Assembly: GCF_030013595.1 (NCBI RefSeq)
Contig: NZ_CP122768.1
DNA: 64,000 nucleotides
Strand: one strand, 5' to 3'
Source: Escherichia coli
Lineage (GTDB): Bacteria > Pseudomonadota > Gammaproteobacteria > Enterobacterales > Enterobacteriaceae
Positions 8,319-16,860 of the stretch are shown piece by piece. Below the pieces are notes generated by a model. The model searched no databases. It saw nothing but the letters and a program-made list of their open reading frames with translations, and was not told the origin of the DNA. The translations under genes and the position numbers were made by a program. Position 1 is the stretch's first letter, and every line of letters starts with the position of its first letter.

Positions 8319-8962
8319 TGTGCCCCGCGTTGTTGCAGGAACAGAATGGTGGCCGCCACGCGTGAGCGGACATTGAGTTTACGCAGCAGATTGCGAATGT
8401 GTACTTTTACTGTCTGCTCGGAAATATTCAACACCGAGGCAATCTGTTTATTTGACAGCCCCTGTGCCAGCTCGTGCAGAACATCCAGCTCGCGCTCCGT
8501 CAGCACGCTGAAGGGATCTTCTTCTGCTCCAAACATTTCACGTTCACGTAAGTACTGATTGACGCGTTCGCTAAAGACTTTGCTGCCTTTCGCTCCGGCA
8601 CGAATCGCTTCCAGCAACACTTCCGGGTCGCTATCTTTCAACAGATAACCGTCTGCGCCTGCGTCTATCAGCGCAAAGACATCGCTGGAGGCATCTGATA
8701 CGGTCAGGATAATAATTTGCGCGGTAACGCCATCCCTGCGCAAGGCATTGAGGGTATCCAGGCCACTCATACCTTTCATATTGAGATCCAGCAAGATCAC
8801 GTCGATATCCAGTCTATTCGCCAGATCGATCGCGCTCGCGCCGTCGCCCGCTTCGGCGACCACTTCAAAGCCAGGATCAAGCTCCAGTAACTGACGAACA
8901 CCGCGTCGCATAAGTGGATGATCATCCACAATCATCACCTGAAAAGGCGTTGCTTCAGGCAT
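8315..8962 (-). CDS. narP: Nitrate/nitrite response regulator NarP (LuxR/FixJ family)
   Basis: Receiver domain (MIVDDHPLMRRG) plus C-terminal LuxR-type HTH; start trimmed to MPEATPF (215 aa). Confidence 0.9.
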   Translation of the reverse strand: MPEATPFQVMIVDDHPLMRRGVRQLLELDPGFEVVAEAGDGASAIDLANRLDIDVILLDLNMKGMSGLDTLNALRRDGVTAQIIILTVSDASSDVFALIDAGADGYLLKDSDPEVLLEAIRAGAKGSKVFSERVNQYLREREMFGAEEDPFSVLTERELDVLHELAQGLSNKQIASVLNISEQTVKVHIRNLLRKLNVRSRVAATILFLQQRGAQ

Positions 8963-12044: not shown

Positions 12045-12085
12045 ATCGTATAGCTTAACGTGTAGCTAAAAATGTTTGCTGCAAA
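12045..12085. repeat. Island-terminal repeat CGTATAGCTTAACGTGTAGCTAAAAA, matching the int-proximal end
   Basis: Near-identical to GTATAGCTAAACGTGTAGCTAAAAAA at about 22035-22060; candidate integrase arm-type sites. Confidence 0.5.
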
Positions 12086-12622
12086 AGTATACAATTTTAA
12101 CCGTTATGACTCCCTGTTATCCGTTATCAAGCTGGTGGATGATCATGGATAACCCGTTATGGGAATCCCCATATCGGCATCAGGCCCATGCCATAACAAA
12201 AACCCCATATTCGTGGGTTTTCTGTGTTGTGGCTATTCTGCCGTTGCCGTGCTGGTGGATATTTCCGGTATGTGGCTCACCATATCGGCATCACGCCCAC
12301 CAGCGCGACGCATTTTTTTAATTTCGCGGGTGTAAAAATTTGACGGGGCGGGCGGTCCTATAAGCAATGGGGGGTAGGGATTTCGATCCCCCCTCCTGAA
12401 TGCAATTTTCCGTATGTGGCTGTGCGGCAATCATACTCGTCACATGTTTTTGACAATAAAAGGCCCGACCGTGAGACTCACAAACAAAAAAGTTACGGAG
12501 AAACAGGGGATCGGGCTCGGTTGCCGCTAAATCTATTCAATTAAAAGAAGATGTCAATAGGGAAAACGAAAAAAAACAATGCTGATATTGTCATAATTTG
12601 AACAAAACCACTATATGTAGTT

Positions 12623-12853
12623 TTAGTTCATGAGGTTAGTCGCTACCAGATGCGTCAATAGTTTTTTGCTATTAATAATCCCTCTTTTTCCATCGGGAGC
12701 TTTGCACTTGTCACTACCTGGTAACTCCTGGTGGCGTTCCTGTTGCAGCACAACGGAAACAGGCGCTGAACACCTGTTAATTTTGCTTGCAGGTTGTTTG
12801 ATTTCGGCAATGCTGCGGATCATCTCCAGCATATCGGCTTCGGTGATGGTCAT
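12623..12853 (-). CDS. Hypothetical small protein (76 aa) at the distal end of the island
   Basis: ORF with AAGGTG ribosome-binding site 6 nt upstream of the ATG; no recognisable motif. Confidence 0.3.
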   Translation of the reverse strand: MTITEADMLEMIRSIAEIKQPASKINRCSAPVSVVLQQERHQELPGSDKCKAPDGKRGIINSKKLLTHLVATNLMN

Positions 12854-12883
12854 GATTTACACCTTAGGAAATCTTAGGGGCTG

Positions 12884-13137
12884 GTTGACACTTTCCGGCT
12901 TAAGACCTTAACAAATCTTAACATCGCAGGTTGACACACTTGACACTTTTTCGCGAAAAACCTTATCAAACCTTAGCATTTCTAAGCATGGCAACTTGAC
13001 ACTTTTCGCGATTTTTTCGGCTTTTTGACGTGGTAAATCTGGCGCAAAGCCAGTAACGGCGGGGTTTACAGCGAGGTTGACACTTTTTCGCGTTCAGAGT
13101 GTAAAGTGTCAACCTGGCAAGCTGCTCAACTTGACAC
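12884..13137. repeat. Array of at least 7 copies of GGTTGACAC(TTTTTCGCG) in both orientations, interspersed with CTTA(A/G)CA short repeats
   Basis: Copies at about 12884, 12929, 12940, 12996, 13075, 13105 (inverted) and 13131; lies immediately downstream of the TerS-like gene. Confidence 0.6.
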
Positions 13138-13146
13138 TTTTTGAGG

Positions 13147-13674
13147 TCATTGATGGCCTGATTTTTCCCACTCAGCCAGGGCGTTTAGTCCGGCTTCACT
13201 CCAGTTATCCAGCTCATCGGGACAATCACCTGCAACATAGCAGAGCTCACAACGCAGCATACGAATTGCCAGCCTGGCATTTTCCCGAAAATCATACTGC
13301 TCAAAGTAATATTGCCCAGCATAATCCTCAAGGCAGATAGCACCATCATCAAGAAATTGCACTTCACAGCATAGTTCCCCGGCTGCATCCTGTACACGCT
13401 GCTGTATGTCATTGTCCGTTACTGGTGCAGGGATTTTACCGTCTCTGGCCTTAACTGCTTTCCAGAACTCGCCCCACGTCATTTCCAGCGTTCTCTCTGG
13501 CCACATTTCAGAAACGGTATCTTTTCCCTGTGCTGGTGGGCTGTTCCGCTGCTCTGTCGCTTCCACATCGATTTTTTTACCGGACATGACCACTTCGCCT
13601 TTCTCGATCCAGTCGTAAACTGTCTGGCGGCTTACGCCTTTGTGTTTGGCATATTCTGCCTTGCTCATAAACAT
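13147..13674 (-). CDS. Small terminase-like winged-HTH protein (Rpp-like packaging-redirection candidate)
   Basis: 175 aa; N-terminal MSKAEYAKHKGVSRQTVYDWIEKG resembles the Nu1/TerS-type HTH; acidic cysteine-containing C-terminus; GAGGGGA ribosome-binding site. Confidence 0.5.
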   Translation of the reverse strand: MFMSKAEYAKHKGVSRQTVYDWIEKGEVVMSGKKIDVEATEQRNSPPAQGKDTVSEMWPERTLEMTWGEFWKAVKARDGKIPAPVTDNDIQQRVQDAAGELCCEVQFLDDGAICLEDYAGQYYFEQYDFRENARLAIRMLRCELCYVAGDCPDELDNWSEAGLNALAEWEKSGHQ

Positions 13675-13844
13675 GACACTTCCCCTCAGACTGTATTAAT
13701 GCGCCGGAAAGCGCGTGTATTTAAATCATCCCAGGAACCGTTGAGCACCAATTAGTTGCGCGAAGTAATCGGCACCAGCGTTCCGAACAATTTCCAACTT
13801 AACGTTCTGATCATTGTTTCCTGCTGCAGGGACAATCCCACGAT

Positions 13845-14498
13845 TCATAGCCAGCGCCCGGATATTTCTTCCAGTTTTTCCAGAGCTGGCTTGCAGGCCG
13901 CATCAATAACTTCACGGACCATTCCGGCGAGCTGTTCTTCTTCTGTCGGCGTTGTTACTTCCACACCTGATGGTTTCCCGCCCTTATCCCATACGCCCAA
14001 CGGTACGAGCGCAACGTGATCGATAAGAAATGGCGTACCCTCAATGAAAAAATTGTCCTCGCCCATTACATCAGGAACTTCTGCCCCACCGGACGCACCA
14101 CAAAACACAACCGACGGGCTGGTGGATACCTCCCCCCGTGCTTTCTGGATGTAATCGATGATTTCCTGCCCGTAAATCCGGCATACGCCCCACACCTCGT
14201 CACCGCGAATATACGGCAACATGACGGTGCCAATAATGCGCGACCGTTCGCCCACGTCTTCAAGGGTTTTGCTTTCGGGATGGTCGATAATGACGGGTAC
14301 TCCGGCGCAACGTTCCAGGAACTGCGGATTGAGATAAGTTTGCGGTGAACGCCAGACAAATTCTTTTTCTTCGGCGCGATAGGCCATTCCGGTTCCTGTG
14401 ATACGCAGGTTAATCAGCCACATGTTGGAAAACTGATAAGGCGACGGTAGCTGACCGTCCCGAATCTGCTTTGCCGCCTCAATTTCTGTTAAAAGCAT
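13845..14498 (-). CDS. Hypothetical protein (217 aa), island cargo of unknown function
   Basis: ORF in the same transcriptional orientation as the packaging module; no motif I can assign. Confidence 0.5.
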   Translation of the reverse strand: MLLTEIEAAKQIRDGQLPSPYQFSNMWLINLRITGTGMAYRAEEKEFVWRSPQTYLNPQFLERCAGVPVIIDHPESKTLEDVGERSRIIGTVMLPYIRGDEVWGVCRIYGQEIIDYIQKARGEVSTSPSVVFCGASGGAEVPDVMGEDNFFIEGTPFLIDHVALVPLGVWDKGGKPSGVEVTTPTEEEQLAGMVREVIDAACKPALEKLEEISGRWL

Positions 14499-14562
14499 AA
14501 TGTCCCCCGGTTATAAGCAATAAGCCCCACCAAATCCGGCAGGGCTGAAATCAGCACGTTTT

Positions 14563-15156
14563 TCATGCCCCCGCGAGGCTTGCAACGTTAATTTTAACCA
14601 GGCGACGGGGAGGGATTTTGAAAGCACTAAGCCAGTTATTCGGATCCCCCTGATATTCAGTAATCCGCCGTCCGGCTTCATCCATTCTTACGGTTTTACG
14701 CAAATAGCCCGGCGTATTTTCCACAGCCCACTGAACACTGTCTTTTGCAGCCTGGTAAATCTGATCTTCCAGCACCGCCAGCGTTGCAGAATCTGAAACG
14801 GAACGAATATCCACATCACTGAATTTTTTAGCCAGCTTCTGTGCACCAATTAATGCACGCTTGCGGTAATCCATCGACTTTTCACCAGCAAACGGGGCTG
14901 GAGCGCGACGGCCCATATTGCTGTATGCGGAATCCGCTTTAGCCTGGGCTTCTGCCAGTGAGGATTCATCTTCGACTGACGCGACGATGTTTTTATTCGC
15001 GTCATCCTCGTCCGCTTTTGTGAAATCCTGTGCGGGGATCGCATTCAGAATTTCGATAATCTCCTGCGGAGTGCTGCCCTGCGACTCTGACAGAGCGTTA
15101 ACCACCTCCATCAGTTTTAATCGCAAATCTTCTTTGCTTGCTGGCATTTTTACCAC
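14563..15156 (-). CDS. Hypothetical protein (197 aa), acidic and Ala/Lys-rich, predicted largely helical
   Basis: ORF adjacent to the 217-aa ORF; composition resembles scaffold or decoration-like proteins, but this is unverified. Confidence 0.5.
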   Translation of the reverse strand: MVKMPASKEDLRLKLMEVVNALSESQGSTPQEIIEILNAIPAQDFTKADEDDANKNIVASVEDESSLAEAQAKADSAYSNMGRRAPAPFAGEKSMDYRKRALIGAQKLAKKFSDVDIRSVSDSATLAVLEDQIYQAAKDSVQWAVENTPGYLRKTVRMDEAGRRITEYQGDPNNWLSAFKIPPRRLVKINVASLAGA

Positions 15157-15186
15157 CTCTCTTTTTTCACCAAAAAATCACGACCA

Positions 15187-15366
15187 TCAGGCCGGACGTT
15201 CTACGGGATAAAGCGCCCGCTGCATTAAACGCCGGGCGACCTCATGAATGCTCGGAGCAATCCCCAGCGGAGAATTGCGGCGTTCCTCGTCCTGGATGCG
15301 CTGTAATGCTTCAATCTGATCACGAGCGAGTAAAACGGGTTTCACGCTGGCTTTTCTCATAGTCAT
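15187..15366 (-). CDS. Hypothetical small basic protein (59 aa), possible DNA-binding regulator
   Basis: AGGAG ribosome-binding site upstream of ATGACTATG; first gene after tandem terminators, so it probably heads its own transcription unit. Confidence 0.4.
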   Translation of the reverse strand: MTMRKASVKPVLLARDQIEALQRIQDEERRNSPLGIAPSIHEVARRLMQRALYPVERPA

Positions 15367-15489
15367 ATCTCCTGAACAAAACAATGATTATGATTGCACA
15401 AACTGAAATAACGATCTACATCATTGCAATTTATGAAACAATAACGCATGATGATCGCGTTCTTCCCATTGACTTCAATCACCTGAAAA

Positions 15490-15560
15490 ACAAAGCCCGC
15501 AACACTTCTGGCTGCGGGTTTTTTACTGGCACAAAAAAGCCGGGAAAAATCCCGGCCTCC
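15490..15560 (-). terminator. Tandem rho-independent terminators downstream of the PerC-like gene
   Basis: Two hairpins (GCCGGGA...TCCCGGC and CCCGCA...TGCGGG), each followed by a T-run on the minus strand. Confidence 0.55.
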
Positions 15561-15561
15561 G

Positions 15562-15849
15562 TCACTGACTGCAATTTTTCGATCCAGGGTATTTCCTGAA
15601 TGCCTTACCATTGGGCTGATGTAATCCCATCCCGGCATGTGCCCGGCTGATGGTTTCGCGCATTTCCCCGAAATTATCCTGCCTTGCTGGTGGGCGTGCT
15701 GCCTTGCGGATACATTCCGCGCGACGTTTTGCCGCCTGTTCCCGTGCCTTGTCATCATTCGCCAGCATGATGACCTCAGCCCACCGCGCCGCCGCTCTCC
15801 GGTACAGACCACGCGCTTCCAGTGCTTCCGCTTTGCTGTCGTGAATCAT
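15562..15849 (-). CDS. PerC-family transcriptional regulator-like protein
   Basis: 95 aa; N-terminus MIHDSKAEALEARGLYRRAAARW matches my memory of the PerC/Pch family; GGAGAA ribosome-binding site; 4-nt overlap with the upstream gene. Confidence 0.55.
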   Translation of the reverse strand: MIHDSKAEALEARGLYRRAAARWAEVIMLANDDKAREQAAKRRAECIRKAARPPARQDNFGEMRETISRAHAGMGLHQPNGKAFRKYPGSKNCSQ

Positions 15850-16388
15850 GCGCCTGTTTTCTCCTTTGCTGCCCGGCGCTGACGTTTGCGCTTCTCATTC
15901 AGCGCCACCAGCCGCGTTTCTGCGTCCTGTTGTTCCTGTGGTGTCACCTCGCCGCACGGCTGGCCTTTCAGGTCGTAGCGTACCCCACCAGCCATTAAGG
16001 CGCGGTAATAGCGCGGACACTGCGCATAAGATGCCAGCGTCGCACGCAATGCCCCTGGACCGAATGCCAGCCCCCTGACGGCGAGATCCTGCATCAGGTC
16101 GTCGAATATCCCCACCTTAAGCGGCTTCGGTGCTTCCCGGCTGAATAATTCAGGCCACAACTCAGTGAGGCGGTTAACGCGCCTGCGGTTTTTGCGCTGG
16201 CGTTTGGTCATATGCCGCCACGGTGTCGCCCCTGTGGGCTTCTGCTGCGCTTTCTGGTTACCGGGCATCACTTTATGCGCCGATGTGGTTTTATCCTGCT
16301 CCTGCGCCGCCTGCGTCGTTTTCTGCGGCGTGCCGTAAATGCCTTTCGGTTTTCTGTTAATGGTCAGCTTAGTCATGCTTTGCCCCAT
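15846..16388 (-). CDS. FinO/ProQ-family RNA-binding protein-like
   Basis: 180 aa; basic N-terminal region followed by LKVGIFDDL...YAQCPRYYRAL, resembling the FinO/ProQ fold. Confidence 0.5.
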   Translation of the reverse strand: MGQSMTKLTINRKPKGIYGTPQKTTQAAQEQDKTTSAHKVMPGNQKAQQKPTGATPWRHMTKRQRKNRRRVNRLTELWPELFSREAPKPLKVGIFDDLMQDLAVRGLAFGPGALRATLASYAQCPRYYRALMAGGVRYDLKGQPCGEVTPQEQQDAETRLVALNEKRKRQRRAAKEKTGA

Positions 16389-16439
16389 CGTTTTTACTGG
16401 TTGCTACGTTGCCCAACGGCACTGACACAACATTCTGTT

Positions 16440-16860
16440 TTCATTTTTAACATTCCTGATTTTTTAATTCCTCACCTGCTGCACAGTGAAAATTTATGAA
16501 GTTAATAACAATATGATTTTAAATGTATTTTTAAGTACTCACTTTTTAATCCTTATATATACGCAAAAGTGAGGTAAATAGTTAAGTTTTAGTTAATATC
16601 TTGCATGGTGTGTTTTTTAACCTACCTGTTATTTTTATTACCTCATTTCTATTAACTCACCATTCCTCACTTTTGTTCCTCACTTTTTATTATTCTTGTT
16701 CTGCTCCTCAGTCGTTTTCTTTATTGTTGTAATCTGTTGTTTTGCAATGTGTTTTTAACTCCTCACTTTTTGACCTATATACAGGTGAGAAAGTGAGGAG
16801 TGGCGTTGATTTTTTGTTAAATTACCCGCCATCCTCACTTTTGCTCCTCACTTTTTACAG
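16440..16860. repeat. Putative satellite replication origin: AT-rich region with CCTCACTTTT iterons
   Basis: At least 8 copies of CCTCACTTTT (direct and inverted) plus degenerate copies, immediately downstream of the RepA-like gene. Confidence 0.7.

Follow-up and report, generated by a model that had tools for sequence, protein, structure and literature searches.

Do two small overlapping genes that lie just past the replication origin of a phage satellite serve the satellite itself, or do they act on the bacterium that carries it? The question is raised by a 64,000-nt stretch of the Escherichia coli contig NZ_CP122768.1 (RefSeq assembly GCF_030013595.1), hereafter the window, in which a gene for a FinO/ProQ-domain protein (FinO-like) and a gene for a small PerC/Pch-family regulator (PerC-like) occupy positions 15562-16388. 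A sequence-only reading had proposed that this pair could rewire host or helper-phage gene expression rather than serve the island life cycle alone. Our results indicate that both genes belong to a Gram-negative phage-inducible chromosomal island (PICI), and that their conserved slot, which closes the presumed replication operon ahead of the packaging operon, suits a function in the life cycle of the satellite no less well than one as cargo. The overall explanation that we favour, with moderate confidence, is that the pair closes a derepressible early operon, in which the FinO-like protein would bind RNA hairpins and its PerC-like partner would serve as a co-regulator.

The interval 15562-16388 corresponds exactly to two minus-strand open reading frames (ORFs), of 180 aa (15846..16388) and 95 aa (15562..15849). 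The start of the FinO-like gene is most likely the second ATG, at 16376, because the RefSeq protein and nearly all homologues begin with MTKL. The plus-strand tcat at 15846-15849 corresponds to ATGA on the minus strand, the ATG of the PerC-like gene thus sharing 4 nt with the TGA of the upstream gene, and the AAGGAG Shine-Dalgarno sequence of the PerC-like gene lies within the FinO-like gene. This overlap, which had already been taken as a sign of coupling, is found together with the AAGGAG in 48 of the 53 pairs from other islands in which a ProQ-type gene is followed by a PerC gene, and the two ORFs are real, conserved and translationally coupled genes. No second copy of either gene occurs elsewhere in the window. 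Beginning 5 nt past the stop codon of the PerC-like gene, two putative intrinsic-terminator hairpins stand in tandem: T1 (15556..15533) consists of GCCGGGA-UUU-UCCCGGC followed by six U residues, and T2 (15518..~15486) of CCCGCAGCC...GUUGCGGG followed by a U-rich tail. Hairpins of an equivalent kind, GCCGG...CCGGC with a T-run, also come after the module in EcCICFT073, Sakai Sp7 and further divergent islands.

FinO/ProQ proteins constitute one of the three main bacterial RNA chaperone families. The assignment of the first protein to the FinO fold and of the second to the PerC family, originally made from the sequence alone, was borne out by profile, solved-structure and fold tests, with both proteins scoring above the curated cut-offs and neither assignment failing. 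The FinO-like protein matches Pfam PF04352 with an E-value of 8.2e-24 and 84.1 bits (cut-off 27) over profile positions 5-108 of 109, and among solved structures its sequence matches the ProQ N-terminal domain (5nb9, 6e-12), FinO (1dvo, 2e-10), NMB1681 and RocC. An AlphaFold2 (AF2) model based on 27 family members reaches a predicted local distance difference test (pLDDT) value of ~90 over residues ~50-170, residues 1-49 being disordered. The best Foldseek match of this model in the Protein Data Bank (PDB) is FinO (1dvo), with E 1.7e-6 and a root-mean-square deviation of 2.0 A over 102 columns; the top 26 PDB matches are all FinO, NMB1681, RocC or Lpp1663 (E 1.7e-6 to 6.7e-5), and the RocC-terminator complex 7rgu is among the matches. 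The architecture comprises a basic disordered tail (1-49), a FinO domain (~58-145) and a basic C-terminal helix, the protein ending ~30 residues past the FinO domain without a ProQ-type C-terminal domain.

In ProQ, residues K35, R58, R69, Y70, R80 and D82 contact RNA at the 3' end of terminator hairpins. The equivalents of all six are conserved in an alignment with the solved structures, and within the family alignment (n=27) the K35 equivalent is invariant, those of Y70, R80 and D82 are kept in at least 90% of members, that of R58 in 24 and that of R69 in 23. These pocket equivalents and the FinO domain are shared with E. coli ProQ, Legionella RocC and Neisseria NMB1681; unlike ProQ, the FinO-like protein has no linker and no Tudor-like C-terminal domain. 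The RNA feature that FinO-domain proteins recognise is a terminator hairpin ending in a U tail at its 3' end (RocC-terminator structure 7rgu; review PMC9977716), and RocC as crystallised on its hairpin likely illustrates, by analogy, the RNA-recognition mode of the FinO-like protein too.

Two narrower NCBIfam models are not reached, namely the FinO model NF010317 (64.6 bits against a cut-off of 136) and the ProQ equivalog NF003434 (57.8 bits against 127), the latter describing proteins with the Tudor-like domain that is missing here. An exhaustive phmmer search returned 2214 cluster representatives at E<=1e-3 and just 8 at E<=1e-30, and by this measure the protein belongs to a narrow enterobacterial clade inside a large superfamily. 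As in FinO of F-like plasmids and FopA of the IncI1 plasmid pCol1B9, a FinO fold with minimal architecture and a basic disordered N-terminal extension is encoded on a mobile element. Unlike in those cases, the element is a chromosomal phage satellite and not a plasmid, and no FinP- or Inc-like antisense partner was identified in it; the protein also stands apart from plasmid FinO in its identity of only ~30-37% over the domain. Both genes are under purifying selection, with median dN/dS values of 0.25 (FinO-like) and 0.30 (PerC-like). Third-position variation is flat along the FinO-like gene, with no nucleotide-level constraint that would betray an embedded RNA or DNA element within it.

The PerC-like protein matches Pfam PF06069 with an E-value of 2.2e-32 and 111.6 bits (cut-off 22.6), its residues 1-89 covering profile positions 1-89 of 90. 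In end-to-end alignments it is 51% identical to Sakai PchE/ECs1588, 53% to the EcCICFT073 homologue and ~44% to pMAR7 PerC. It falls in the same Pfam family as PerC of enteropathogenic E. coli (EPEC; pEAF/pMAR7), Pch of enterohemorrhagic E. coli and EcCIMP1_025, and has, like them, the full-length YRRAAxRW motif; this motif is invariant, the invariant residues being Y16, R17, R18, A19, R22, W23 and C46. The AF2 model (pLDDT 78) is all-helical, with helices at 5-13, 16-29 and 33-50 and a less confident one at 60-73. No helix-turn-helix (HTH) is predicted in the protein and no PDB fold match of the model is significant; with the best match at E 3.8, there is no recognisable DNA-binding domain, nor can a mechanism be borrowed from a solved structure. 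A weak resemblance to the ANR family falls short of the threshold of NF033650 (14.4 bits against 32, E 0.024); such a resemblance was also remarked by Pick et al. (PMC11773190).

The element that carries the pair is identified by its gene content as a Gram-negative PICI-type phage satellite. It combines an integrase, an AlpA-like gene, a replicase followed by an iteron-bearing, AT-rich origin, and its own att site, within the ~10-15 kb of such islands; no tail or lysis genes were found in it. All on the minus strand, the order is integrase, AlpA-like HTH gene, a divergent regulatory region, an Icd-like ORF, two small ORFs, DUF4222, RepA helicase, origin, FinO-like gene, PerC-like gene, the two terminators, and then a 57-aa ORF, a 197-aa ORF, a DUF2213/prohead-protease-like ORF and a TerS-like HTH ORF (Table 1). 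This overall layout matches EcCICFT073 (PMC6092414). Strain cq9 has a 100%-identical copy of the 1.6-kb region around the pair, and ETEC6335 carries a 98.5%-identical island; RefSeq annotates the pair in both.

The putative origin, directly downstream of repA, contains at least ten CCTCACTTT iterons in both orientations and many inverted repeat pairs, with a GC content of 29.7% at 16400-16699. Its layout agrees with the description of PICI origins (PMC6092414), and the earlier statement that the pair follows the origin holds when the genes are read as they are transcribed. We infer that repA, named 'helicase RepA family protein' in RefSeq, is an upstream gene within the same operon as the pair.

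Table 1. Coordinates of the gene pair and of the other island features in the window.
Feature	Position	Strand	Remarks
FinO/ProQ-domain protein gene	15846..16376	(-)	176 aa; longest ORF, to 16388, 180 aa
PerC/Pch-family small regulator gene	15562..15849	(-)	95 aa
Predicted coupling junction	15846..15866	(-)	AAGGAG 15866..15861, 11 nt, then ATGA 15849..15846
Putative tandem intrinsic-terminator hairpins T1, T2	15486..15556	(-)	minimum free energy z-score of the region -4.3
Candidate promoter-like block, conserved	15385..15495	(-)	TTTCATAAATTGCAAT-N24-TGCAATCATAAT; between terminators and packaging operon
Packaging/interference module	13147..15360	(-)	57-aa, 197-aa, DUF2213 prohead-protease-like and TerS-like HTH ORFs
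Putative satellite replication origin	16389..16854		two CCTCACTTT iteron sets around AT-rich core
RepA-type replicative helicase/initiator (AAA_25)	16855..18270	(-)	Pfam PF13481, E 2e-44
DUF4222 protein, RgdR homologue	18267..18566	(-)	Pfam PF13973, E 2.7e-24; overlaps repA start
AlpA-like HTH gene	19987..20193	(-)	at tRNA-Pro end of island
Integrase	20721..21962	(-)	at tRNA-Pro end of island
Whole PICI-type island, ~10.0 kb	12047..22053		bounded by 26-nt direct repeat, 12047-12072 and 22028-22053

Compared with EcCICFT073, EcCIEDL933 and EcCIMP1, the island has in common an integrase, an AlpA-like gene, DUF4222/RgdR, a replicase, an iteron origin and a packaging/interference module within 10 kb at a dedicated att site, as well as the absence of tail and lysis genes; unlike them it has a RepA-type helicase instead of a D5-type primase, carries the FinO-like gene, lacks a gene for a single-stranded DNA-binding protein (SSB) and shows no sequence similarity to solved RppC. 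The PerC-like gene lies in the same post-origin slot, followed by the same type of terminator, as those of PchE (ECs1588, Sp7/OI-51) and the EcCICFT073 homologue, but it is coupled to a FinO-domain gene where theirs come after SSB.

The FinO-type gene forms 205 clusters at 90% identity, from Escherichia, Shigella, Salmonella and Citrobacter, and by blastn it is present in 1158 of 5426 complete E. coli genomes (21%), at up to 9 places per genome, none of them on a plasmid. Among 50,697 phage records there are 6 weak matches to the FinO-like protein and 1 to PerC; the distribution suggests that the FinO-like gene is satellite-specific. Porcine strains designated as enterotoxigenic E. coli (ETEC) carry near-identical islands, and related pairs occur in Salmonella and Citrobacter. 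The best PLSDB match for the FinO-like protein (79% identity) is in NZ_OL790696.1, a 4.8-Mb record that is presumably a chromosome filed as a plasmid.

Across 81 FinO-gene loci, the order is always DUF4222, replicase, (origin), (85-aa ORF), (SSB) and then the FinO gene, which occurs with three unrelated replicase types, namely D5-type primase, DUF927 and RepA/AAA_25. PerC lies immediately downstream of the FinO gene in 51 of these loci and immediately upstream, in reversed order, in 6; in 8 only a PerC remnant is left, 481 nt downstream, and in 16 PerC is absent. A reciprocal survey scored 68 distinct PerC loci by the gene immediately upstream, which was FinO-like in 40, SSB in 21, the 85-aa ORF in 2 and another gene in 5. 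EcCICFT073 and Sakai Sp7/OI-51 are arranged as 85-aa ORF, SSB, PerC, without a FinO gene, and capsid-forming PICIs (cf-PICIs) have a FinO gene and an unrelated 82-aa ORF, followed by capsid, protease and portal genes, without PerC. The post-origin slot of related islands holds a variable set of 85-aa ORF, SSB, FinO-like and PerC-like genes. The 82-aa ORF of cf-PICIs (8534-8782 (+) in locus L047, and related loci) overlaps the FinO gene by 10 nt and has no Pfam match; that it might be a distant PerC was ruled out by an hhalign probability of 0.1%.

Because PerC occurs without a FinO gene, the FinO gene without PerC, and both in reversed order, the two genes share a slot and are often co-translated, yet are separable, and they do not constitute a fixed functional unit. 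Over the same loci (L015-L088 compared with the window pair), the median dS is 0.86 for PerC versus 0.25 for the FinO-like gene, a contrast that points to a mosaic junction rather than to a co-evolving unit. By this comparison the PerC alleles appear much older than the FinO genes adjacent to them, which suggests that recombination breakpoints lie at the ATGA junction or close to it.

A variable slot content is also what would be expected of cargo. Read in this way, the pair would be a 'moron' that rewires chromosomal expression and benefits the lysogen rather than the island life cycle, with the PerC-like protein acting on virulence or H-NS-silenced loci and the FinO-like protein on host small RNAs (sRNAs) or the ProQ regulon. 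The sequence-only reading had stated that PerC homologues of mobile elements affect virulence loci, and published work agrees: PerC/Pch proteins regulate LEE1 in the enterocyte effacement locus (LEE), which EPEC PerC activates and which the PICI protein EcCIMP1_025 represses, as measured with LEE1-lux in Citrobacter rodentium (PMC11773190). In addition, RgdR, a DUF4222 protein (PMC10877973, PMC3378721) of OI-51/PICI with a homologue in the same island, regulates type III secretion and motility (PMC3378721), and FinO-domain proteins can adopt foreign RNAs (PMC9977716). Given EcCIMP1_025 and RgdR, a cargo role is plausible for the PerC side. Nevertheless, the EcCIEDL933 and EcCICFT073 PerC homologues, 51-53% identical to the PerC-like protein, were reported to be without effect on LEE1 (PMC11773190, citing Porter 2005), and a LEE-specific role seems unlikely to explain the spread of the pair, since it is also found in Salmonella, Citrobacter and ETEC-designated strains. 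The location is also unusual for cargo: the genes lie inside an inducible operon between the replication and packaging modules, whereas PICI accessory genes are usually at island ends (PMC6092414). Nor was a promoter of their own detected, no sigma-70 consensus being found between the origin and the FinO gene, nor upstream of the packaging operon. As an account of the pair as a whole, host-directed cargo seems to us rather unlikely.

To our knowledge, every characterised mobile-element member of the FinO/ProQ family (e.g., FinO, FopA) governs, through one antisense RNA, how the element that carries it transfers or replicates. Correspondingly, the FinO-like protein might chaperone an antisense RNA of the island that times or limits the replicase, in the manner of FopA-Inc/repZ or FinO-RepX, and its gene does adjoin the origin and the replicase, often beside an SSB gene. 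Plasmid replication or transfer is governed by FopA and FinO through antisense RNAs (PMC9977716), and for episomal satellites of Vibrio a ProQ/FinO-like regulator next to repA and parA has been noted in passing (PMC13230959). An antisense partner specific to one replicase is unlikely, however, because the FinO gene accompanies three unrelated replicases; many PICIs replicate without a FinO gene, and no conserved antisense promoter-terminator unit was found. A weak candidate lies opposite the 5' end of repA (18222-18252), and the stretch past its T-run shows no conservation in the N-terminus of the EcCICFT073 primase. Control of replication or copy number is therefore an improbable function for the pair.

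Candidate antisense RNAs opposite the FinO gene and repA, represented by plus-strand matches at 16168-16184, 16327-16343 and 18222-18243, were rejected as evidence because such matches are as frequent as chance predicts, lie where A-rich codons encode conserved basic motifs, and lack conserved counterparts in other replicases.

Beyond the terminators, the window contains the promoter-like block listed in Table 1, which, as TTTCATWAWTTGCAAY-N24-TGCAAT, recurs in 23 of the 40 distinct regions behind PerC, where the background would give 0.003 per 350 nt; the sequences bearing it are homologous, so that the 23 are not independent events. It is also seen in divergent PICIs (L014, 14330-14440; L008; L089), and it is a candidate target of an island regulator. 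In EcCICFT073 the block is followed by a CTG-N10-CAG palindrome (AACTGGATGAACATCCAGTT) resembling a LexA box, which the window block lacks. The packaging module downstream matches phrog_6216, phrog_530 (head maturation protease) and phrog_57 (terminase small subunit). Its operon opens with the 57-aa ORF (15190-15360 (-), MRKASVKPVLLARDQIEALQRI...), ribbon-helix-helix-like by eye, for which there was no Pfam, PHROG or PADLOC match; among the surveyed loci, it was confined to PerC-bearing islands.

Interference genes are the usual occupants of the PICI segment downstream of the origin (PMC6739421), and ProQ-type proteins bind many prophage RNAs (PMC9977716), and the pair could accordingly be imagined to target helper RNAs or late transcription, favouring the satellite or protecting the host. 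Against this, neither gene nor their neighbours had a PADLOC match, and the pairing is inconsistent across packaging-module types. Moreover, when the EcCICFT073 post-origin genes were expressed singly, only rppA blocked lambda, the cloned region including the PerC homologue (PMC6739421). We therefore regard helper-phage interference or anti-phage defence as very improbable. The 175-aa TerS-like ORF of the module was also considered as an Rpp homologue and ruled out, since its sequence matches no chain of a solved structure, RppC among them.

The favoured explanation, a derepressible early operon closed by the pair, draws on the family and fold assignments, the pocket residues, the satellite context and synteny, the kept coupling junction, the purifying selection, the terminators behind the module, the candidate promoters and the satellite-specific distribution. 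Beyond the sequence features themselves, we infer each of its steps. The Icd-like ORF, DUF4222/RgdR, repA, the origin and the pair would form one early operon, with a candidate promoter at 19463..19434 in the divergent region, amid operator-like inverted repeats, and derepression of the island by a helper phage would switch this operon on. Its FinO-like product would bind 3' ends consisting of a hairpin and a U-tail, the nearest RNA candidates being the island early transcripts that would end at T1/T2, with helper or host RNAs possible as well; its binding could shield these RNAs from 3' decay or aid antisense pairing. The PerC-like protein would be a protein-level co-regulator of transcription, whose nearest target would be the conserved non-consensus promoter block just downstream that may drive the packaging operon, and action on host loci would be possible and secondary.

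Several observations weigh against this explanation. No RNA partner was found: Rfam searches of the whole island and of the alpA-icd leader alone, in E-value mode, returned tRNA-Pro only, with no C4/CI-like, counter-transcribed RNA (ctRNA) or sRNA family over the island, and antisense terminator-like matches are at chance level (5 versus 2.8 expected). No terminator stands after the FinO gene where other ORFs follow, as in cf-PICIs and the type of locus L002, which implies that binding its own 3' end is not the universal role of the FinO protein, and the same type of terminator also occurs in islands without a FinO gene. PICIs in general can function without this gene, which is absent from the experimentally mobilised EcCICFT073 and EcCIEDL933/Sp7, and single EcCICFT073 post-origin genes other than rppA gave no phage-interference phenotype (PMC6739421). 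Furthermore, the promoter and operon assignments rely on consensus matches no commoner than chance, and no target promoter of the PerC-like protein was identified.

A bolder version would make the satellite-borne FinO-domain proteins an unstudied class of RNA chaperone, switched on only upon helper derepression, which competes with or adds to chromosomal ProQ at terminator hairpins and so reprograms post-transcriptional control in helper or host, for instance through stabler early mRNAs of the satellite or through sequestration of antisense or late-leader RNAs of the helper, with the co-translated PerC-like protein setting the switch to the packaging operon; we consider it quite unlikely.

Other features of the island complete its description. 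The bounding repeat, CGTATAGCT(T/A)AACGTGTAGCTAAAAA, has copies that are 96% identical and spaced 9981 nt apart, and it probably marks the att sites. The island adjoins tRNA-Pro(GGG) and is flanked by yejO and yejM; the att-like repeat lies ~120 nt past the 3' end of the tRNA gene (22172-22248), outside it. Residues 20-22 of the DUF4222 ORF are P-G-D where active RgdR has R-G-D, and residue 20 decides RgdR activity (PMC3378721). In the divergent region 19400-19710, GTGTAAGACA inverted repeats surround a promoter-like TTGACG-18-TACATT site (19463..19434 (-)), faced by a plus-strand, YlcI/YnfO-like ORF of 59-72 aa (19486..19704), and the region is likely to be the island repressor/operator switch. 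A listed 286-aa GTG ORF (19122..19982) is probably spurious except for its Icd-like C-terminus. A strong 12-bp hairpin followed by a T-run (19928-19955 (+)), located between the small plus-strand ORF and the alpA-like gene's end, probably terminates the leftward (repressor) transcript. Immediately downstream of the TerS-like HTH ORF (13147..13674), 3-5 copies of TTGACACTTTTT(CGCG) at 12913-13146 may be a pac/cos or terminase-binding site; similar AAAGTGTCAA motifs follow PerC in a Salmonella island (L009).

What, then, does the locus add? The pair was correctly read and already annotated: RefSeq, which contains proteins identical to the two, names the products 'ProQ/FINO family protein' (WP_063102546.1), a correct automated assignment, and 'PerC family transcriptional regulator' (WP_000581049.1). 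PICI homologues of the latter have been published, PerC alleles having been listed among PICI cargo by Fillol-Salom in 2018 (PMC6092414) and studied since (PMC11773190), and we found no paper on the function of a PICI-borne FinO-domain protein. The finding is thus a modest experimental lead and no surprise, and the PerC-like half matters less, PICI PerC alleles being known and their relatives activating, repressing or doing nothing at the LEE. Through the FinO-like half, 21% of complete E. coli genomes are seen to have a distinct clade of FinO-domain proteins on their phage satellites, and a dedicated RNA partner, if the protein has one, would give Gram-negative PICIs their first described layer of post-transcriptional control.

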